Notes under the pieces: generated by a model
The model's database searches: none
Seen by the model: only the letters and a program-made list of their open reading frames with translations
Told to the model about the DNA's origin: nothing
Program-made: the position numbers and the translations under genes
Shown: piece after piece, positions 53,285 through 62,955 of the stretch
Position numbering within the stretch: position 1 is the stretch's first letter
How the letters are laid out: each line of letters starts with the position of its first letter
IMG/VR virus record: IMGVR_UViG_3300027749_000046
Direction: 5' to 3' (one strand)
DNA: 64,000 nucleotides
Source of the DNA: a virus

Positions 53285-56200
53285 TTATCTCTTGCTACCG
53301 CCTAGAGATACCCTAGGCTTAGGCGCGTACGACTTGCCGGTGATCATCGACTTAAATCCGCGCTCTACTGCGTCCTTCATCTCAGCGCCCTGTGCCGCGT
53401 GATAGCTGCCTAGGAACTTCTGAACGTGCTTCAGGTGAACCTTATGCTTCTCGCCGTCGATATCTAGAGTGAGGTGACCGTTGTTGTCTGGCTTCTTGTC
53501 GCTGATCTGAGCTACGAGGTTAGCCCTATTCTCCGATGGAGTATCACCGTCTTCCGACTTTGCCTTCTTAGGACGACCTTTGCCGCGCTTGGCTTCTTCT
53601 TCCTCGATGAACTTTGCGAGAAGAGAGATAGAATTGTGTGACTCGTTCGCTAGTTTTTCAAAATCGCTCTGTGACATTGATTGTCCCTTATTTGCCCTGT
53701 ACTTGGCGGTACCGCCTGTTGTGTATTTACTGGTGTCTGAACTTGGATACGTGTCTGTCATCTGCGGAGTATTAACAGACTTACCCTTTACCATATTTAA
53801 TTTATTAGCGGCATACTGTCTCTCTGCCGCAGCTAGAGTATCACCGTCAGAATCTTCTTTTACAATTCTTAAGTTTTCTTTAGGAAATTGAGATGATCTG
53901 TCACCATGATATACTGTATAGTATAGTTTTTTACTTCCAGGTATACCACGATGAATTTTACCAACAGTACCTTTTTTACCGTGGAGGCTACTGCCAGGAT
54001 TATGTATTGTAACTTCATTGCCTAATTTGAATGCTGATTTAATTGCTTCGTCGAGAGTTTCTTCTTTATGAAGCAGCCTGAAGTCTTTAGCGTCAATCTT
54101 ACCGTTATGATTCTTGTCGAGCTTATACTGCTTACCGACGAGCTTCTTCTCATCGCTGATGTCATAGCGAGCGGTGCTGTTGGTTGGGTTCTCTCCGCTC
54201 TGGTCGCCTTTCTCGCCGGCTTGATTGCCGATAGTCGGCCTGTTCATCGGGAGCTTCATTGACTTCTTTGCCTCAGCGAGAGAAGCAAAGTGAGCTAGCT
54301 CGTCCGCCGTGAAGATAATGCTCTCATTTGTATCCGTATCGTCTTCAGCGTCAGGATATATATCTTTGGCTTTTGCTCTATATTCAGGTTTTTTCTTGAA
54401 ATAATCTTTGACATCACCAGCAGTGCGACCAGGATCTTGTTTATCTCTATTTTGATCTTTATTAACTAAGCCTGCAACTGTCGTTGAAAGTCTTGGCTTA
54501 GTTTGAGGGGCAACAGACGGGGTAGTATCTGGCTTAGATGCTGGCTTAGAGTCCGGAACTTCAGATGGGCGAGTACCCGATGATACACCCGGATTCTTTG
54601 GCTCAGCTGGCTTAGAGTCTGGAACTTCAGATGGACGAGTACCTGACGATACACCTGGATTAGCTGGCTCGTCTACGCTCTTTGGATTGCTGACGTACTT
54701 CTCGCCGGCGACGTTTGTCTGGTATTCTTTACCTTTATATGTGAACTTACCACCTGCGCCGCCGGCTTTCTTACGAGCTGAAGCGAATGCACTGCCGAAG
54801 CTGTCGTCCTCATGCATGAGGTTGATCTTCTCGATAAGATCTAGCTCGCCTGCGCCGAGAACCGACTCGATGGTATTCATGCCGGTATCGGCGCCGCCGT
54901 ATCCCTTGCCAGCCGGTGGGTTCATACCGCCTTGGTTTGAATCAATATTGGCGTTCTTGTCCTTCGGCTTCTTCGGAGGAAGAGGCACGCTGCTCGATGC
55001 GGTATCTTTTGGTCTTACTGGTGGTAGTGGAACTGTTGCCATCTTTGCATCTTCCTTATAAAAACTTAGGGTTTTGTTAATGTCTTTTCCAAATCTCTTG
55101 CGATCTTCTGGTGAGATGATAGTATTAAAGTAGTCTGAAGCGTCTTTTCTGGTTGCTGTTCCAGCTTTGCTCTTGTCTAGTAGATCTTTAGTAGCAGCAG
55201 AAGCAGCTTGTGCCTGCTCAGGTGTCTTACCTGCAGACTTACTGACCGCGCTCATTACATCGGGCATCTTATCTAGAGCGGAAGATAGCTTCTTTACTGG
55301 ATCTTGATCGTCTTGACTGTCATTATTATCACCGGCGTGAAGGTTCATCTTGCGCGTAGAGCTCTGCTTCTCGAGCTCGCGACGACGGCTGAGTGCCGCT
55401 CTCATCTTTGATTGAATACCAGTGCCTATGTTTCCGAAGTGAATTTCCTGCTCGTCGATCTCAGAGTCCTCTTTGTTTAGTCTCTTTGCGGCCTGAAGGG
55501 ATACCCTAACGTTCTTCTTCAAGTCAGCTGGATCGTAATTTCTGTTATTGAGAACTCCGCCGTCACCCATAGAGGACATAATGTGGTGGTCGGCACGGGC
55601 CTGTACTTGCTTGAGAGCGTTCTTTCCAGCTGGAGTATTGCCGACTTCGTCGAGCTGCTCAGCTTCTTCTTTCTGTATCTCCTTGTTGAAGATACCCTGG
55701 TCCTTGAAGATCTTCTTGCTCTTTGCAGGCGACTTGTCTGTCTCGGTATCTCTATCGACTGTCTTTGGATGGATATCAATCTCAGTTACCCCACCCTTAA
55801 CAGCGCGAGCTGAATGAAGACTTTGATCGCCGCCCTTAACTTCATTGACTCTCGTGTTGATTTGGCTAATTTCTTCTTTTGAAAAGATTTTTCTATTGAA
55901 GTTACCAAAGAATTTATCGACTGGGCCCTGATCATTTGGACCAATACCTATTTTTGAAGCACCCTGTGGTATAGAAACTGGATCTGAAGTGCTTGAAGTG
56001 GGTAGCGATACAGGAACTGAAGCCTGAGATGTTTTCTTAGCAAGCATACTAGCTTTATCTTTATCTAACATTCCCTGGATGCGATCGCCCTGTGCTTTAA
56101 AATCAGCACCAAAATTATCGTCTTCTTTTTCTAGTTTTCTTGTATTGGCTTCATTTACAGACATCGGTCCATCATTTTCTGAACCAAGATCTCTATATTT

Positions 56201-56569
56201 TTGTGTGGTGCTTCTGTGAAATTTTTCTGCATCAGATGCATTCTTAAATTTGAACGCAACGCCCTTATCAGAGCTATAGTGATATTCCCCACCGTGATTT
56301 TTTACGTGTTTGTGGAACTCATCAGACTTTAATTTTTCTGCGCCTTTTTTATCATATACTTTAACATGAACTGAGTGAATCGTTGACTGCTCATCGATGA
56401 TCTTTACCTTGATCTCGGCCTGCTTGGCGAGCTTAGACAACTCATCGGTAGGAGCGACGTCGTCAGGACGAGCTACGTTCTTTACTTTCTCACGAGCCTT
56501 GGTGTTGCGATCTACAGCCGCAGCCTCCATGACTCTCCTGATCTGAGCTTCTACCGATGTGTACTTCAT
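53285..56569 (-). CDS. Large modular charged protein, probable internal-head polyprotein
   Basis: 1094 aa of short modules separated by hydrophobic-x-E motifs. Confidence 0.75.
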   Translation of the reverse strand: MKYTSVEAQIRRVMEAAAVDRNTKAREKVKNVARPDDVAPTDELSKLAKQAEIKVKIIDEQSTIHSVHVKVYDKKGAEKLKSDEFHKHVKNHGGEYHYSSDKGVAFKFKNASDAEKFHRSTTQKYRDLGSENDGPMSVNEANTRKLEKEDDNFGADFKAQGDRIQGMLDKDKASMLAKKTSQASVPVSLPTSSTSDPVSIPQGASKIGIGPNDQGPVDKFFGNFNRKIFSKEEISQINTRVNEVKGGDQSLHSARAVKGGVTEIDIHPKTVDRDTETDKSPAKSKKIFKDQGIFNKEIQKEEAEQLDEVGNTPAGKNALKQVQARADHHIMSSMGDGGVLNNRNYDPADLKKNVRVSLQAAKRLNKEDSEIDEQEIHFGNIGTGIQSKMRAALSRRRELEKQSSTRKMNLHAGDNNDSQDDQDPVKKLSSALDKMPDVMSAVSKSAGKTPEQAQAASAATKDLLDKSKAGTATRKDASDYFNTIISPEDRKRFGKDINKTLSFYKEDAKMATVPLPPVRPKDTASSSVPLPPKKPKDKNANIDSNQGGMNPPAGKGYGGADTGMNTIESVLGAGELDLIEKINLMHEDDSFGSAFASARKKAGGAGGKFTYKGKEYQTNVAGEKYVSNPKSVDEPANPGVSSGTRPSEVPDSKPAEPKNPGVSSGTRPSEVPDSKPASKPDTTPSVAPQTKPRLSTTVAGLVNKDQNRDKQDPGRTAGDVKDYFKKKPEYRAKAKDIYPDAEDDTDTNESIIFTADELAHFASLAEAKKSMKLPMNRPTIGNQAGEKGDQSGENPTNSTARYDISDEKKLVGKQYKLDKNHNGKIDAKDFRLLHKEETLDEAIKSAFKLGNEVTIHNPGSSLHGKKGTVGKIHRGIPGSKKLYYTVYHGDRSSQFPKENLRIVKEDSDGDTLAAAERQYAANKLNMVKGKSVNTPQMTDTYPSSDTSKYTTGGTAKYRANKGQSMSQSDFEKLANESHNSISLLAKFIEEEEAKRGKGRPKKAKSEDGDTPSENRANLVAQISDKKPDNNGHLTLDIDGEKHKVHLKHVQKFLGSYHAAQGAEMKDAVERGFKSMITGKSYAPKPRVSLGGSKR
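54539..54670 (-). repeat. Tandem 66-bp coding duplication (EPxNPGVSSGTRPSEVPDSKPA x2)
   Basis: Two copies visible at both protein and DNA level, with mostly synonymous differences. Confidence 0.9.
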
Positions 56570-56573
56570 CTCT

Positions 56574-57011
56574 TTATGCCTTTAATATTGACTTAAGCAT
56601 CCAGTCGTGCTTATAGTGTCTGTCTACTCTGTCTTGCAAGAAATTGGCGAGGCCAACAGCGTTCTCTTTCTCTGCCATCTTCTGGGCTTCCTTGAGCAAC
56701 TCTATTACAGCGATGTTGTCAGACTGGAGCTTAGATATCATAGACATAGCGGGAGGTATGTTGGTCTCGTCTTTTACTATAGATAGATCTGTATAGCGCA
56801 CGAACGAGCCGGGAGCGTAAGATCCAAGAGTTCTGATCTCTTCTGCAATAGTGTCTACAGAATCGTGAATTTCCTCGTACAGATCATTCAGGAATGAATG
56901 ATACTGCGGAAAGTTAGGACCCTCTACATTCCAGTGAAAATAGTGCGCCTTTAGGTACAGCGCAAAAACGCTGGCCAGCACCACCTTCATCTTCTCAACT
57001 AGTTCATTCAT
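56574..57011 (-). CDS. dps: Dps / ferritin-like protein
   Basis: KAHYFHWNVEGPNFPQYH...DTIAEEIRTLG...HYKHDWML. Confidence 0.92.
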   Translation of the reverse strand: MNELVEKMKVVLASVFALYLKAHYFHWNVEGPNFPQYHSFLNDLYEEIHDSVDTIAEEIRTLGSYAPGSFVRYTDLSIVKDETNIPPAMSMISKLQSDNIAVIELLKEAQKMAEKENAVGLANFLQDRVDRHYKHDWMLKSILKA

Positions 57012-57257: not shown

Positions 57258-57428
57258 TTATGAACCACCATCTCCACCGCCAGAGCTTCCGCTCTTTCCG
57301 GGTGGATGCTTTTCTATCTTCCCCGATGCCATGCGAATGGCAACCATTGGTGCAGACACTTCTTTTCTCTTTCCAGTCGTGCCTTGGGGTACACTCAATT
57401 CTCTAAGAAGCTCACTGAACTTCTTCAT
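57258..57428 (-). CDS. Small protein with capsid-targeting-like N-terminus (56 aa, not in the ORF track)
   Basis: MKKFSELLRE-LSVPQG...; ATGA-coupled. Confidence 0.65.
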   Translation of the reverse strand: MKKFSELLRELSVPQGTTGKRKEVSAPMVAIRMASGKIEKHPPGKSGSSGGGDGGS

Positions 57429-57841
57429 CTATTTAGTATTCTTCTCATCGTATCAACGTGATCTCTGTCTTTCTGCTTCTCTGGCTCAGGGAGCTCAGAG
57501 TAAGGCACGTGTTGAGATGCGTTGTAGTCAGCTTTAGGGTTTCTCTTCATCCACTCTTTGTGCACGTGATCGGCTGCAGCCTCTGTGTCTTTGCCGTGCT
57601 TACGTAGAGCTACAAGCGCGGCCTTGCCAGCCTCAATATTCTCTTTCTGCCAATCTGGATGAAGCTTATTAAATGGAACATTGATGTTACCCTCGGTACC
57701 GTCGCTGTTCTTCTTTATTCTCTCTTTTCCAGTATTCTCAGGGTCAAAAGTACTACGCCACTTGTCATGTTGAATTGCAGCAAACTGTCTCACGGCGTCT
57801 CTACCTCTTCCCTCGATAATATACTCAATAAAGCTTTTCAT
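57425..57841 (-). CDS. RyR-repeat domain protein with capsid-targeting-like N-terminus
   Basis: Two A..HxxW...PF/YxxL repeats, the second ending VPYSELPEPEKQKDRD. Confidence 0.7.
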   Translation of the reverse strand: MKSFIEYIIEGRGRDAVRQFAAIQHDKWRSTFDPENTGKERIKKNSDGTEGNINVPFNKLHPDWQKENIEAGKAALVALRKHGKDTEAAADHVHKEWMKRNPKADYNASQHVPYSELPEPEKQKDRDHVDTMRRILNR

Positions 57842-57842
57842 T

Positions 57843-58748
57843 TTAGCAGTCCCAAGCTCTGCGCGACCAGTAGTTAGCCGACGTCTTATTCGTTAGATTA
57901 CCCTGACCGCTTGAGCGTGCGCAGTACGAGCGCTTGCGAGCCGGAATATTCTTCTTAATGCTCAGGGTCTTATCGCCGAAGTTAACTTTCTTTACGTTGC
58001 CGGTCGTTGGGTCCTTGACGAACACTTTCGACTTCTTTACGTCACCCTTCATTGGCTTATTTAGAGGCACCTCACGACCTTGGTATTTCGCTTCATTTAT
58101 AGCGCATGGGCACGTTCCCGAGGAGCACTCGTTAAGCTCATACGACTCGCGAACTGTCTTCTTGATGGTAGAGATCTTCTTGCCGTGCTGACCTGGAGTT
58201 GCATTCTTATAGATTCTGACTGCCGAGTCTGTGGCGTCGAACCTCGAGTCTGAATCGTCTGGATTTGTCGACTGGAGCTCAGACGTCTCTGGGGTCTTGA
58301 AGTGCTTTGAGCTCTTGTGGATAGATCTGGCTGTATCGAGCGACTCATTCTGAGCTGCCCTGAAGTCGGCTGCAGTGGGACGGCCTTTCTCTCCAGGTCT
58401 GCGCATGTGCTCTCCAGAACCGCGCTTGATGCGCTCTTGCTTAGCGTGGATATTATCCCAGAGGCCTCTTATTTCTTGTAGATCTTTATCCATGTGCGCT
58501 GCTGCTCCGCCTGCTATAAATGAATTTACTCTGTTGAATGCATACTGCTCAGGAGACTCATTGAGTACCTGATCTGTATAATAGCTATCTATGCCACGAG
58601 TATAGACCTCTTCTAGAGTGTCTATATTATAACCACTTTTCTTTGATTTTTTGTATAGTGACAGCCTTATGGCGTCAGTAACTACGGCACTCCCGCGACT
58701 TTGCTCGGCAAAGTCTAGCTGAGGACTAGGGAGATATTTCTTTACCAT
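57843..58748 (-). CDS. Modular hypothetical protein (probable internal head protein)
   Basis: QYAFNRVNSF module, GLWDNIHAK module and AKYQGR...SANYWS module, separated by x-x-E sites. Confidence 0.75.
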   Translation of the reverse strand: MVKKYLPSPQLDFAEQSRGSAVVTDAIRLSLYKKSKKSGYNIDTLEEVYTRGIDSYYTDQVLNESPEQYAFNRVNSFIAGGAAAHMDKDLQEIRGLWDNIHAKQERIKRGSGEHMRRPGEKGRPTAADFRAAQNESLDTARSIHKSSKHFKTPETSELQSTNPDDSDSRFDATDSAVRIYKNATPGQHGKKISTIKKTVRESYELNECSSGTCPCAINEAKYQGREVPLNKPMKGDVKKSKVFVKDPTTGNVKKVNFGDKTLSIKKNIPARKRSYCARSSGQGNLTNKTSANYWSRRAWDC

Positions 58749-58816: not shown

Positions 58817-58824
58817 TATTTATA
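58817..58824 (-). promoter_or_regulatory. T4-type late promoter TATAAATA
   Basis: Exact consensus, intergenic. Confidence 0.8.
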
Positions 58825-58845: not shown

Positions 58846-59463
58846 TTAAGCCTTATGGTGTGTTATACGTACAGATCCATCTGACATGTGCTGAACGTGA
58901 TGTCCATGGAACTCAACATTCGGGTGCTTCTTCTTGAGTGCCAGCATGCCGTTGATATTATCTATTGAATCATCGTAGAGGTGCACCCTCTTGTGGCCGT
59001 GCCGGCTGATGGCGTCTGATATGATCTTGGCCTTAGCGGCCGCGGGCTTAACGCCGGTTATATTACCTGCGCGACGCACGTGAATCTTGCCTATGTCTAC
59101 GCCGTAGGACTTCCACTTGTCTGCGAACTTCTTCTTGTCGTCGAAGTCAGATCGCGCCGTGAGTATCTCGACATGTCCGCCGTTCCTGTGTATTGCCTTC
59201 ATCTTGCCGAGCATGCTGCGGATAGGCTTTGCTCCCTGCGCGAACTTCTTTGCCGACTTAAACTCAGAGAAGTCGTAGCTGTGTCCAGGAGGCAGCTTGT
59301 GATCGTTGAACTCAGATGAATTCAGGCTCTGTACTGTCTTACCGCGTGGGTCTTTTACGTGCACCCTGACGTTAGACCCGCTGGTGTGCATGAGTGTGTC
59401 ATCTACGTCGAAGTAGTGGATGCTGTGCTGGCTCTCGGTTAAGAATAAACCAAAAGACTTCAT
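58846..59463 (-). CDS. HAD-superfamily phosphatase with capsid-targeting-like N-terminus
   Basis: FDVDDTL (motif I), ILTAR (II), K (III), YDDS (IV). Confidence 0.8.
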   Translation of the reverse strand: MKSFGLFLTESQHSIHYFDVDDTLMHTSGSNVRVHVKDPRGKTVQSLNSSEFNDHKLPPGHSYDFSEFKSAKKFAQGAKPIRSMLGKMKAIHRNGGHVEILTARSDFDDKKKFADKWKSYGVDIGKIHVRRAGNITGVKPAAAKAKIISDAISRHGHKRVHLYDDSIDNINGMLALKKKHPNVEFHGHHVQHMSDGSVRITHHKA

Positions 59464-60107
59464 GTCTTGCTTTTCTTAGGCTTTGGCGTCATACCAGTAG
59501 CAACATCGTTATACATCTCTCTCGCGTGACTATCTGACATAGTAGACGGTACACCCTGACGAAATCCGTAGTAGTCGTTGTTGCGAACGTGCTCTCTCAT
59601 CTTAGATGCCGACATGCCACCGACACCCTCTGAGTCTGGATCTCTATCACCAGAAGAGACATACTCTATCTTCTTGAAGTTAAAGGGAATATTACCAGAC
59701 TTGTCTGCCTGACCGTTGTAGCGAGATATGAGCTTCTGATACTCAGGCAGTCTGTCGCTGCCTGCCACGAACACTAGGTGATTGTGTCCAGCTTGATGAA
59801 GTCTAGTGAGGTGGTGAATCAATGTCGGCTGATCGGGAGTAGCCGCAGTTATGTTAGCTCCAGGAAATGCTCTTCTTGCGTGCTTTACTTTCTGCTGAGA
59901 AGATAAAGGATTCTTATCTGGGTCTTGAGATCCAGATAAGACTATCTCGTGATGAGCCTTTCGTCTAGCAGCTTCTTCCATGACTTTATTTACTAGGGCC
60001 TCGTGACCAGATGTCGGAGGATTCATCCTACCGAAAGAGAACACCACCGGGTTCATCTTAGGACGACCTACGACACCCTCGGATATAAAGCGAATAAAGC
60101 TCTTCAT
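59460..60107 (-). CDS. HxGH-type (cytidylyltransferase-like) nucleotidyltransferase
   Basis: FGRMNPPTSGH, KNPL, VAGSDR, MSASKMR. Confidence 0.88.
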   Translation of the reverse strand: MKSFIRFISEGVVGRPKMNPVVFSFGRMNPPTSGHEALVNKVMEEAARRKAHHEIVLSGSQDPDKNPLSSQQKVKHARRAFPGANITAATPDQPTLIHHLTRLHQAGHNHLVFVAGSDRLPEYQKLISRYNGQADKSGNIPFNFKKIEYVSSGDRDPDSEGVGGMSASKMREHVRNNDYYGFRQGVPSTMSDSHAREMYNDVATGMTPKPKKSKT

Positions 60108-61375
60108 CAGCTGCCTCCTGCTATTCTACCCATGCCGGCGAGGTTGGCCGCGGCGAATCCCTCTGGGCTCTGGTCGACGAGCTTCTGCATGTTGCCTTGT
60201 GGGTCAACGTGTACGTAACCCTCGTGGCCTGTTGCTCTGTTTCCTATAGACTGACGAGTAGGAGAGTTTGCGTCGAGTGCTCTAACGAGTACGTTCTTTG
60301 CCCTGCTGAGGTGTCCCTCGAGATCGATAGCCTTGCCGAAGTGCTCTCTGTTGTTAGCTACCGACTGGAGCATCTCTCCGTATCTGTCCATTACTCTCTT
60401 CTTAGCAGCTTCAGTCTTAACTTTAGCTGCCTCTTTGGCTGCAGCTTCACTGAGGTGCTTTGTATATCCCTCGACGCTCGGTTTCTCTGGCTTCTCACCG
60501 GGCTGCATAGTGGCGCTTTTTCTAATAACGCCGTTGAGATAAGTCTCTAGTGGTATCTCATGACCGCGCATGGCCTCTAGAGCTTCCGGCTTCATGCTGC
60601 GATAGACTCTCTTGGCGCGTTCCTTGTGATCTTCATACTCACGCTGCATCTCTGGCGTATAGTTATCGGGATTGATCTTTACCCTAGGATCTACATCATG
60701 AACGTCGGGATGCTGCTGGAAGTCCTCGCGATTAACGTCAGGCGTCGCAGTCATGTTCTCTAGGCTGTTGCCCTTGTATCTCGTGTGAGTTACTATACCG
60801 AACTTAGAGCGCAGTGCTTTCTGAGCCTCGCCTGAGTTCTTAGGCAGCTTGTATCTCACCGTGTTTGGCTGGAAAGAAACCTCGTCGCCGTTTGTCTCAA
60901 TATCTTTCTTTCCAGAGTGCATCGCGTCTCCCTGATAGACTTGGTCTGGATAGCGATTACCAATTTTCTTTGGCTTAGGCATGATCTTAGGCAAGTTCTC
61001 AAGTGCGGCCTTGAGCTTCTCAACTAGTCCTGGGGCATGCCCGTGATTTCTCTCGATATCTTCTGGCGTGTAGTTGATCTTTGGATTCTTATTGAAGGCA
61101 GACTTACTGGCTACAAAGAACCTACCTGTCTCTGGGTGATGCCCATAGACTATAGATGGAGCGCCATCGTACTTAGTTGTAAGCGAGTGCCTGCCGCCTC
61201 TTGGCTTCTTACCTTTGACAATCGACTCAACTGCATCTAGTGAGTCAGATGCTCTAGAAACACCCTCATTACCGCCAGTTATAGGCAGGCGATTTAAGTG
61301 CTCTAGGTGCTTTAGCTTTTGACCCTCAGGAGAAGCTTCTTCTTGTTCTAATATAAATCTCTTAAAACTAATCAT
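60107..61375 (-). CDS. Putative ATP-dependent ligase-fold protein (DUF6267-like)
   Basis: HLEHL, TKYDG (KxDG), YQGD, EGYV, KLVD. Confidence 0.65.
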   Translation of the reverse strand: MISFKRFILEQEEASPEGQKLKHLEHLNRLPITGGNEGVSRASDSLDAVESIVKGKKPRGGRHSLTTKYDGAPSIVYGHHPETGRFFVASKSAFNKNPKINYTPEDIERNHGHAPGLVEKLKAALENLPKIMPKPKKIGNRYPDQVYQGDAMHSGKKDIETNGDEVSFQPNTVRYKLPKNSGEAQKALRSKFGIVTHTRYKGNSLENMTATPDVNREDFQQHPDVHDVDPRVKINPDNYTPEMQREYEDHKERAKRVYRSMKPEALEAMRGHEIPLETYLNGVIRKSATMQPGEKPEKPSVEGYTKHLSEAAAKEAAKVKTEAAKKRVMDRYGEMLQSVANNREHFGKAIDLEGHLSRAKNVLVRALDANSPTRQSIGNRATGHEGYVHVDPQGNMQKLVDQSPEGFAAANLAGMGRIAGGS

Positions 61376-62544
61376 CTACCTAGACTTTCTTCATCTGAAC
61401 TAAATTGAGAACCGCCGTGCATTCCTGAAGAAGGTAGCTTTACTTTATTTTTAGTGGGAAGCACCGATGACTTATTAACAACTGGCTTTCTTGTTAGATA
61501 AGGCGCTTGAGTAGTAGAGTTAAATCCCTTTGTAGGGCCGCTCCCCTTTTTAATTCCCTGTGTTAACACGGGAGTAAAGTCAGACTCACCTTTTCTTCTA
61601 CCTTCTATCTTTACACTAATACCTCCGCTATGTGGAGCAGTCCTGAGCTCTTCATAATCATTGAGAGTATTGCGTGCGTCTTGAACGTCATTCATGTGAT
61701 GAGATAAATCTACACCATTTCTTCCAACTTGGCCGTGATATCTAAAATGCTGAAAGGTAGTCTTAGGTGCAACGATATCATTAACATAATTTTTGAGATC
61801 ATTAGTATTCTTTTTTGCAAGACTCTTTGTGAGAGCACCAGCTACGTTTCTTTGAACTTCACCAGCAGACTTTTCAGCGTCAGCGGCTGCTTGTCTTTCT
61901 TTAGGATTCTGACTGTCTCTAAATCTCTTAAAGGTATCATGACTGTCGATACCAAGCTCTTTAAGACGCTTTGCGTGTCTATCTCTGTGGCTAACCAGAT
62001 CTGATTCATTTGCTCCGGACATTCTGGCTAGTGTTTCAAATCCATTATTTCTAAGATTAGGTGTCTTCATAGTACCGTATTTTAAGCTTATACCTACAGG
62101 TCCCTTGTTAGTCTGAAGCATAACATCGGCATCACTGTTTGTATCTTTCTTGCCGGTAAAGCTCTCGTGATCTGAAGGCTGAGAAGTCCAAGCACCGTGA
62201 TGAATGGTATGATGTCCAGCTGCAGCAAGTTGCTGTCTTATATTGGCCGCGGCCTGTGCAGAATGCTTTGCGATCTGATCATACATACCAGGATATCTTG
62301 CATCTAATTCTGTCTTGATCTTATCGTGGATATCGCTTGGTGTCTTGCCCTCTTCATCTCTGAAATGCTGCAGCATTTCATTAGGTCCACCGTGTTTTGG
62401 GTGAGTTCCACTGTGGAGATGCGATCCAGTTAAGATCTCAAATAGCTTACCTTTAGCATCGTTTAAGTTAAAACTTTTCTCTTTTTCTTTCTTTGGCTTT
62501 ATTACTCTTGCCTCAGATAGAATAAATTGCTTAAATGGTATCAT
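61372..62544 (-). CDS. Putative PD-(D/E)XK-like nuclease with capsid-targeting-like N-terminus
   Basis: GKLFE...DADVML...GISLK. Confidence 0.55.
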   Translation of the reverse strand: MIPFKQFILSEARVIKPKKEKEKSFNLNDAKGKLFEILTGSHLHSGTHPKHGGPNEMLQHFRDEEGKTPSDIHDKIKTELDARYPGMYDQIAKHSAQAAANIRQQLAAAGHHTIHHGAWTSQPSDHESFTGKKDTNSDADVMLQTNKGPVGISLKYGTMKTPNLRNNGFETLARMSGANESDLVSHRDRHAKRLKELGIDSHDTFKRFRDSQNPKERQAAADAEKSAGEVQRNVAGALTKSLAKKNTNDLKNYVNDIVAPKTTFQHFRYHGQVGRNGVDLSHHMNDVQDARNTLNDYEELRTAPHSGGISVKIEGRRKGESDFTPVLTQGIKKGSGPTKGFNSTTQAPYLTRKPVVNKSSVLPTKNKVKLPSSGMHGGSQFSSDEESLGR

Positions 62545-62578
62545 GTCGTAAGCCTCATGGAAGTTAGATTGTTCTCAA

Positions 62579-62586
62579 TATTTATA
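62579..62586 (-). promoter_or_regulatory. T4-type late promoter TATAAATA
   Basis: Exact consensus, upstream of the 62544 operon. Confidence 0.8.
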
Positions 62587-62590
62587 TAAT

Positions 62591-62620
62591 AAAAAAGGGA
62601 AGCCCCTAAGAGCTTCCCTT
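62591..62620 (-). terminator. Intrinsic terminator
   Basis: GGGAAGCTC-TTAG-GGGCTTCCC-TTTTTT. Confidence 0.85.
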
Positions 62621-62740
62621 TACGACGTGGACAGGAGGAACCCCACCTACCGTATACTGGCGACCTGTCAATTCCAATCCTCGCGGCTTGCCTCTTGTGC
62701 TGCAGGCACAAACGCGTCGAAGTATTCACAAGATATGTGC
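62621..62740 (-). ncRNA. Candidate small structured RNA (own late promoter and terminator)
   Basis: Multi-stem fold: CGACG/CGTCG, TTGTGC/GCACAA, GACAGG/CCTGTC; no credible ORF. Confidence 0.6.
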
Positions 62741-62745
62741 ATACA

Positions 62746-62955
62746 TTATTTATAACCAGAAACAGTATTTTCAAACTTTTCTACAAATATTTTTTTCAAT
62801 ACAAAAGACGGAGTCCAGCCATCAAAAGCCCCACCTAGATTCAAGAAGCGACAGCGTGTTTTCATTTCTTTTTCTACACCAAAGGCAACGATATGGTCCG
62901 TTGACTTCTCGACGATAGCGTACGTGTTCTTCTTTTGAATAACTTTATAGTTCAT
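62746..62955 (-). CDS. Conserved small protein downstream of gp41
   Basis: LNLGGAFDGWTPSF motif; TAATG-coupled to gp41. Confidence 0.75.
   Translation of the reverse strand: MNYKVIQKKNTYAIVEKSTDHIVAFGVEKEMKTRCRFLNLGGAFDGWTPSFVLKKIFVEKFENTVSGYK
62747..62754 (-). promoter_or_regulatory. T4-type late promoter TATAAATA
   Basis: Exact consensus, overlapping the stop of 62746..62955. Confidence 0.75.

Follow-up and report, generated by a model that had tools for sequence, protein, structure and literature searches.

The window analysed here is a 64,000-nucleotide stretch of viral DNA (IMG/VR record IMGVR_UViG_3300027749_000046), and the subject of this text is a cassette of four minus-strand genes near its end, which encode a restriction-endonuclease-like protein, a DUF6267 protein with ligase motifs, a HIGH-family nucleotidyltransferase and a HAD phosphatase (Table 1). 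The last 11 kb of the window belonged to a T4-like myovirus, in which genes for gp41 helicase, gp32, ribonucleotide reductase, gp2 end protector, baseplate hub and tape-measure protein could be recognised. The nearest relatives of this phage were marine Kyanoviridae (cyanophages and Pelagibacter phage HTVC008M).

Late transcription unit and capsid-targeting leaders

The four genes overlapped start to stop. A sequence-only reading made earlier had described the last three of them as translationally coupled, and the open reading frames were indeed found at those positions, with overlaps of 4, 1 and 4 nt along the four-gene unit. One T4-type late promoter was located before the 390-aa gene and the next one after the stop codon of the HAD gene, therefore the ligase-like, nucleotidyltransferase and HAD trio represents the distal three members of a four-gene late unit. 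It is strongly supported that region 58846-62586 (minus strand) of this T4-like marine myovirus is transcribed as a single late unit, from which four translationally coupled proteins are made.

Table 1. Positions of the cassette, its signals and its neighbours in the window
Feature	Position	Strand	Details
Terminator	about 62595-62640		GC-rich strong hairpin with T-run, just upstream of promoter 62579..62586
T4-type late promoter	62579..62586	-	TATAAATA; 35 nt before first ATG of cassette
Restriction-endonuclease-like (PD-(D/E)xK-type) protein	61372..62544	-	390 aa; first gene of unit; leader MIPFKQFILSE, fits with E at position 11
Junction, 390-aa and 422-aa genes	61372-61375		ATGA, 4 nt
DUF6267 protein	60107..61375	-	422 aa; PF19782 full-length, E 8e-75; predicted ligase-fold lysine nucleotidyltransferase with ~130-aa helical insert
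DUF6267 leader, residues 1-10	61346..61375	-	MISFKRFILE; predicted prohead-protease cut after I/L-x-E
DUF6267 motif I	61163..61174	-	K68-Y-D70-G71 (TKYDG); K68 is the predicted nucleotidyl-accepting lysine; invariant
DUF6267 motif III-like	60926..60934	-	Q148-G149-D150 (YQGD); invariant in alignments
DUF6267 helical bundle, residues 241-368	60272..60655	-	Between motifs IIIa and IV; model secondary structure; shortened in Syn9 gp183 (alignment gaps)
DUF6267 motifs IV and V	60182..60223	-	E385-G-Y-V388 and K398 (QKLV); invariant
Junction, DUF6267 and nucleotidyltransferase genes	60107		TGATG, one shared base, 1 nt
HIGH-family (HxGH-class) nucleotidyltransferase	59460..60107	-	215 aa; T32-S-G-H35 at 60003-60014; MSASKMR at 59595-59615; leader MKSFIRFISE
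Junction, nucleotidyltransferase and HAD genes	59460-59463		ATGA, 4 nt
HAD phosphatase	58846..59463	-	205 aa; last of four, no further junction; D19-V-D21-D-T23 at 59395-59409; leader MKSFGLFLTE
Next late promoter	58817..58824	-	TATAAATA; after HAD stop codon; ends the four-gene unit, begins unit of DUF5824-containing gene
DUF5824-containing protein	57843-58748	-	301 aa; own late promoter; no capsid leader
Two small neighbour proteins	57425-57841 and 57258-57428	-	138 aa, weak RyR/DUF7701 similarity, and 56 aa; leaders MKSFIEYIIE and MKKFSELLRE
Dps/ferritin-like protein	56574-57011	-	PF00210, E 4e-23; no capsid leader
Low-complexity protein	53285-56569	-	1094 aa
Non-coding stretch	62591-62754	-	~160 nt

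The cassette proteins began with the T4-type leader pattern MxxFxxFIxE. A leader was taken as about 10 residues with an aromatic or hydrophobic residue at positions 4 and 7, I or L at 8 and E at 10, and this was fitted exactly in five adjacent genes. On direct comparison, the leaders closely resembled MKTYQEFIAE, the start of T4 IPII/IPIII. In the T4 leader, capsid targeting depends on residues 4 and 7, and cleavage on residues 8 and 10 (PMC9026906). F4 and E10 of the leader were invariant in 33 close DUF6267 homologues and nearly invariant in the nucleotidyltransferase alignment, and each of the five related genomes tested had a member of the gp21 prohead protease family. The nucleotidyltransferase homologue of Syn9 (gp184) starts with MKKFSAFLSE. 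A homologue annotated as cytidylyltransferase was detected in S-SM1 virions with 25 peptide counts, above the portal protein, and also in S-CREM2 virions (PMC3037559, PMC10665884). The enzymes had earlier been supposed to be pre-packaged, and this agrees with the leaders, the late promoter, the protease of the relatives and the published virion proteomes; for the proteins of the window phage, packaging is predicted from their sequences.

The DUF6267 protein and its ligase-like fold

The motifs I, III, IIIa (H197-T-x-Y200), IV and V of the DUF6267 protein were arranged in canonical ligase order, with a single lysine in motif V. In the 33 close homologues K68, D70, G71, Q148, G149, D150, H197-T-x-Y200, E385, G386, V388 and K398 were all invariant. 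The ligase motifs were also invariant across 24-26 homologues with identities as low as 23%, including Syn9 gp183, S-CAM9 and HTVC008M. By these alignments, the motif pattern first noticed from a single sequence reflects conservation, not chance. The histidines H23, H26 and H197 were invariant as well. The family is large, with 3,822 clusters at 50% identity in a full HMMER scan (E <= 0.001), and it was found in 466 phage records.

A ligase fold, which had been proposed from the motifs, was also recovered by structure prediction and fold search. The AlphaFold model (pLDDT 89, pTM 0.85) began with a helix at the N-terminus, followed by a beta-rich domain with motifs I-IIIa, a four-helix insert at residues 241-368 and the strands on which motifs IV and V are located. 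Polynucleotide ligases made up 49 of the 50 best structural matches in a second look, and the first out-of-family matches among predicted viral structures were RNA ligases (E 1.5e-3). A Foldseek search of the model against PDB gave nothing significant, with CorA helices on top. The model had neither the C-domain of Rnl2 nor the N-domain of Rnl5. No OB-like domain followed motif V, because the chain stops 24 residues past it, so the OB domain and motif VI of gp30-type ligases were not found.

Sequence comparison did not place the protein in a named ligase family. With hhalign, the DUF6267 profile showed no real similarity to T4 gp30 (probability 0.2%), to the Rnl2 family profile (0.1%) or to T4 Rnl1, for which the sole local pairing joined motifs IV-V with Rnl1 residues 224-240 (IEGYV...K) and was not significant alone. 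Membership in Rnl1 or Rnl2, which the sequence-only reading had put forward for comparison, was thus not borne out by sequence profiles, and the same was true for gp30. DUF6267 was the sole match of the 422-aa protein in Pfam, with none to PF09414 (RNA_ligase) or PF01068. NCBIfam gave no match, the family profile search matched only a coiled-coil artefact, and beyond the family no named relatives came up in the ESM Atlas. PDB sequence searches with the ligase-like, nucleotidyltransferase and HAD proteins singly gave no matches. In the literature, the full-text search found no mention of DUF6267, and the papers searched on cyanophage expression timing did not mention the cassette genes. Since the ligase motifs are invariant and the structural matches point to ligases, yet no profile link to gp30, Rnl1 or Rnl2 was found, DUF6267 is placed in the ligase/capping fold but outside all named ligase families. 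The predicted structure strongly supports a sequence-orphan branch of the lysine-nucleotidyltransferase fold, structurally nearest to the nick-sealing RNA ligases, and on present comparisons this ligase-like family is new at the sequence level.

DUF6267 could be the missing DNA ligase of marine T4-like phages, sealing nicks in the incoming genome or in recombination and replication intermediates of lineages without a gp30-type ligase, which is considered rather unlikely. A canonical DNA ligase was missing from four of five related genomes, and HTVC008M, Syn9, S-CAM9 and one 99%-complete IMG/VR genome had DUF6267 but no PF01068/PF01653 ligase. The ten commonest organisms in a tblastn search with T4 gp30 included no Synechococcus phages, as against 367 Synechococcus phage records with DUF6267, and the DUF6267 gene adjoins the replication and recombination genes uvsX and gp41. 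However, the fifth genome, that of the complete 170-kb relative L155, had both DUF6267 and a canonical ATP-dependent ligase (G002:C1:143922-144515), and the late promoter, its preceding terminator and the capsid leader are what would be expected of a virion protein and not of a replication enzyme.

The same fold is common to capping enzymes, and the protein might modify ends instead of repairing them. It would then put a nucleotide (in a capping-like reaction) or itself on the 5' end of phage DNA or RNA, with a donor made by the nucleotidyltransferase, and the end would be marked or shielded against host nucleases or sensors. An mRNA-capping enzyme did occur among the weak viral structural matches (E 0.03), plain ligation does not account for so tight a fusion with a nucleotide-activating enzyme, and the invariant H23, H26 and H197 presumably lie outside the standard ligase motifs. 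In all structural searches, however, capping enzymes came out much lower than ligases, neither a triphosphatase nor a methyltransferase was seen as a partner, and a gp2-type DNA end protector is already present in the phage, which makes end modification quite improbable.

Partner enzymes and gene linkage

Linkage was counted over 80 IMG/VR loci with DUF6267, and fusions over 78 DUF6267 genes. The nucleotidyltransferase gene was directly downstream of DUF6267 in 75 loci, most of the remaining loci being truncated contigs, and the two were fused in 18 genes; the fusion in reverse order (nucleotidyltransferase, then DUF6267) also exists. Thus the co-occurrence expected in related phages was found, and it is strongly supported that the nucleotidyltransferase is a near-obligate partner of DUF6267. 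The HAD gene adjoined in 30 loci, usually upstream, and the family of the 390-aa protein was directly upstream of DUF6267 in 14.

In distant relatives, HTVC008M among them, a Zeta_toxin/AAA_33 P-loop kinase was located between DUF6267 and the nucleotidyltransferase or fused to the latter, and a fusion of kinase and DUF6267 also occurred. This kinase could be aligned with the whole kinase domain of T4 Pnk (pairwise E 3e-4). The sequence-only reading had seen no kinase partner and concluded that the chemistry may be new; this holds for the window phage only, because in relatives a Pnk-like kinase is located between DUF6267 and the nucleotidyltransferase or fused to one of them.

All 68 'genome' matches of DUF6267 lay on contigs whose size or content was that of a phage, most of them from metagenome bins, so a bacterial origin was dropped and the family is phage-specific as far as these matches show. 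In a 5.2 Mb Anaerolineae scaffold of a metagenome-assembled genome (L139), a short stretch was 76% identical to DUF6267 residues 70-134, which may stem from the remnant of a prophage or from a chimeric assembly.

The 215-aa nucleotidyltransferase corresponds to the 'cytidyltransferase' of cyanophage annotation (phrog_3041). It had the (H/T)xGH motif, the ISxxxxR-type motif and the Rossmann-like fold of the HIGH/HxGH superfamily, and its model was confident (pLDDT 90). In the homologue alignment T32, G34 and H35 of GRMNPPTSGH and G164, S166 and R171 of GMSASKMR were invariant, as were GRMNPP, KNPL, AGSDR and RDPD, the family's own motifs. The relatives' enzymes were fused to P-loop kinases and to DUF5824/DUF6321 domains. 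In many of them a DUF5824 piece like that in the 301-aa protein of the window was attached to the C-terminus of the nucleotidyltransferase, sometimes together with DUF6321, and the 301-aa protein is probably part of the functional neighbourhood of the cassette.

The four motifs of the HAD protein (D19-x-D21-x-T23, T102, K144 and D164-D165) were invariant in 15 homologues, and the Asp+2 typical of phosphatases was kept. The DxDxT phosphatase recognised earlier is therewith strongly supported as catalytically intact, judging from its conserved residues. The protein matched phrog_415 'polynucleotide kinase' (E 1.4e-9), and one homologue matched the HAD of the 'Swiss Army Knife' RNA-repair proteins. 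The best Pfam match of the family was the class B/C acid phosphatase family, with HAD IIIB acid phosphatase matched by 9 of the 15 members. The hhalign comparison with T4 PseT paired motif I alone, BLASTP was not significant, the family profile search found no match, and the NCBIfam scan gave noise only. In two IMG/VR relatives (L052:2168-3136 and L059), the HAD homologue carried an extra N-terminal HExxH domain, with a weak M78/IrrE-like match, behind the capsid leader.

These partner enzymes bear on the main rival explanation, which is possible but unlikely: the kit would be injected to restore NAD+ or another adenylylated cofactor and offset its depletion by host defences. The nucleotidyltransferase would then be an NMN/NaMN (or phosphopantetheine/FMN) adenylyltransferase, the relatives' kinase a nucleoside or cofactor kinase as in NadR and CoA synthase, and the HAD protein a nucleotidase, while the ligase-like protein would consume the product, as NAD+-dependent ligases do, or act on a small molecule. 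Fusions of nucleotidyltransferase and kinase do exist, weak profile matches of the nucleotidyltransferase to the phosphopantetheine adenylyltransferase (PPAT) included the common KNPL stretch, and the acid phosphatase family matched by the HAD proteins includes NMN nucleotidases. The fold of the nucleotidyltransferase alone is insufficient to separate NMN adenylyltransferase (NMNAT) from PPAT. Cyanophage papers have already speculated that the enzyme is an NMNAT (PMC10665884). On the other side, the NMNAT equivalog model TIGR00482 gave 13.5 bits against a cut-off of 112.45, so that of the HxGH assignment made earlier the class stands (TSGH and SASKMR are conserved) and the NMN adenylyltransferase suggestion is not supported. 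Furthermore, no Nampt, Nudix or PRPP-synthetase-type partner occurred among the neighbouring gene families scanned against Pfam, the relatives' kinase matched AAA_33/Zeta and aligned with T4 Pnk, and the ligase fold has no known small-molecule role, though DUF6267 is the constant core of the module.

For the 390-aa protein, the Pfam and PHROG scans gave no match. The Atlas search led to clusters of HaeIII/HinP1I/MspI type, and E36, D140 and S153-x-K155 were conserved in its family.

The cassette proteins could also be mainly structural or charge-balancing internal head proteins, with their enzyme folds as relics. T4 IPII and IPIII are small, basic and without a known enzymatic role, and the neighbours of the cassette include small leader-bearing proteins without an enzyme fold. 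However, all catalytic residues of the three enzymes were kept unchanged over thousands of clusters; relic folds would not keep them, therefore this explanation is disfavoured and is regarded as very improbable.

Some other features were observed around the cassette. The Dps/ferritin-like gene was syntenic with the cassette in 35 of the 80 loci and may have a role in DNA protection. The 1094-aa low-complexity protein contained an EF-hand-like loop and a tandem PGVSSGTRPSEVPDSKPA repeat, and its PHROG match was only weak. Downstream of the gp41 region, the non-coding stretch was situated between two TATAAATA boxes with a strong terminator at its end, and may be a small late RNA.

Proposed function and comparison with known systems

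The explanation given most weight, at about an even chance, is that the cassette is an injected end-healing and sealing kit whose members are carried in the capsid; it is probably a ready-made nucleic-acid repair kit ejected with the phage DNA. The leaders would load the four proteins into the prohead core, and a gp21-type protease would trim them after I/L-x-E. Then the enzymes would be ejected with the DNA and could act ahead of any phage gene expression. The HAD phosphatase would clear 3'-phosphates, the Pnk-like kinase of the relatives would phosphorylate 5'-OH ends, and DUF6267 would nucleotidylate itself on K68 and then seal the break. The step of the nucleotidyltransferase could be the adenylylation of a phosphate monoester, either a 5'-phosphate end or the precursor of a cofactor, or else the reversal of abortive adenylylation. 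The substrate could be cleaved RNA of host or phage, or nicks in the incoming genome; for DUF6267 the predicted structure leans to RNA ligases.

Several points weigh against the repair kit. Classical heal-and-seal needs no HIGH-family nucleotidyltransferase, yet this is the most tightly linked partner, and a HIGH nucleotidyltransferase with a P-loop kinase is also the architecture of the cofactor enzymes NadR and CoA synthase. The profile comparisons of DUF6267 with Rnl1, Rnl2 and gp30 found nothing, the cassette of the window phage has no kinase, and HAD was missing from more than half of the 80 loci. The cyanophage DUF6267 homologues had no leader, and in the S-CREM2 virion table the nucleotidyltransferase was present with no upstream DUF6267-like protein seen, the gene itself being not mapped. 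About 15 loci had a nucleotidyltransferase without a leader next to a DUF6267 with one, and Syn9 showed the opposite arrangement. This is suggestive of co-packaging of the two proteins via a single leader per pair, an idea weakened because of the S-CREM2 virion table.

A bolder and doubtful variant is that DUF6267 and the HIGH-family nucleotidyltransferase act together as a machine of two enzymes, whose chemistry would be without precedent among the known ligases, as a capsid-borne first responder for the incoming genome or for host translation RNAs. In such a machine the nucleotidyltransferase would make or recycle an activated species at the break, through direct 5'-adenylylation, through pyrophosphorolysis that rescues abortive App-ends, or in the form of an NAD-like donor. 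If true, ocean phages would commonly inject a counter-defence or damage-tolerance function of a new class.

Few unexplained genes of marine T4-like phages are as widespread as DUF6267 and the 'cytidyltransferase', the latter a cyanomyovirus core gene. The ligase-fold reading of a capsid-addressed DUF6267, genetically welded to the nucleotidyltransferase, makes a biochemical hypothesis, open to test, out of two genes that annotation had left blank. It points to the injection of an enzyme kit by ocean phages, beyond anti-restriction proteins, and may account for the way in which phages lacking a canonical DNA ligase handle breaks.

Compared with the nick-sealing RNA ligases of Rnl5/Rnl2 type (Naegleria gruberi NgrRnl, T4 Rnl2 and Trypanosoma REL1), DUF6267 shares the KxDG lysine motif, an acidic motif III, the EGxV motif IV, the lysine of motif V and the absence of an OB domain. 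It differs in having no sequence-profile similarity to them, in the helical bundle of about 130 aa between motifs IIIa and IV, in an N-terminal helix (with the invariant H23 and H26) in place of the Rnl5 N-domain or Rnl2 C-domain, in a motif V with one lysine instead of KxK, and in its capsid-targeting leader and obligate HIGH-family nucleotidyltransferase partner.

The nucleotidyltransferase is similar to the small HIGH-family adenylyltransferases (bacterial PPAT/CoaD and archaeal NMNAT) in its T/HxGH and ISxxxxR-type motifs, whereas it fails the NMNAT model, has motifs of its own and is fused to DUF6267, P-loop kinases, DUF5824 or DUF6321.

Like the tRNA heal-and-seal system of T4 Pnkp and Rnl1, the cassette is phage-encoded and combines a HAD phosphatase with an enzyme of ligase fold, to which relatives add a Pnk-like P-loop kinase. 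T4 makes Pnkp and Rnl1 early and is not known to package them, whereas a late promoter and capsid leaders were found here. In relatives the fusion partner of the kinase is the nucleotidyltransferase or the ligase-like protein and not HAD, the window phage is without this kinase, and the cassette adds the nucleotidyltransferase and a nuclease-like protein. With T4 IPI/IPII/IPIII and Alt, it shares the leader M-K-[ST]-[FY]-x-x-F-I-x-E, the I/L-x-E cleavage context, late expression and clustered variable cargo genes. The cargo of the cassette, however, is predicted to be nucleic-acid or nucleotide enzymes conserved across the phage family, while that of T4 is small basic proteins, an anti-restriction protein or an ADP-ribosyltransferase. 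By analogy, the cassette resembles T4 Pnkp/Rnl1 joined to the internal-protein delivery route of T4, and belongs to neither set.

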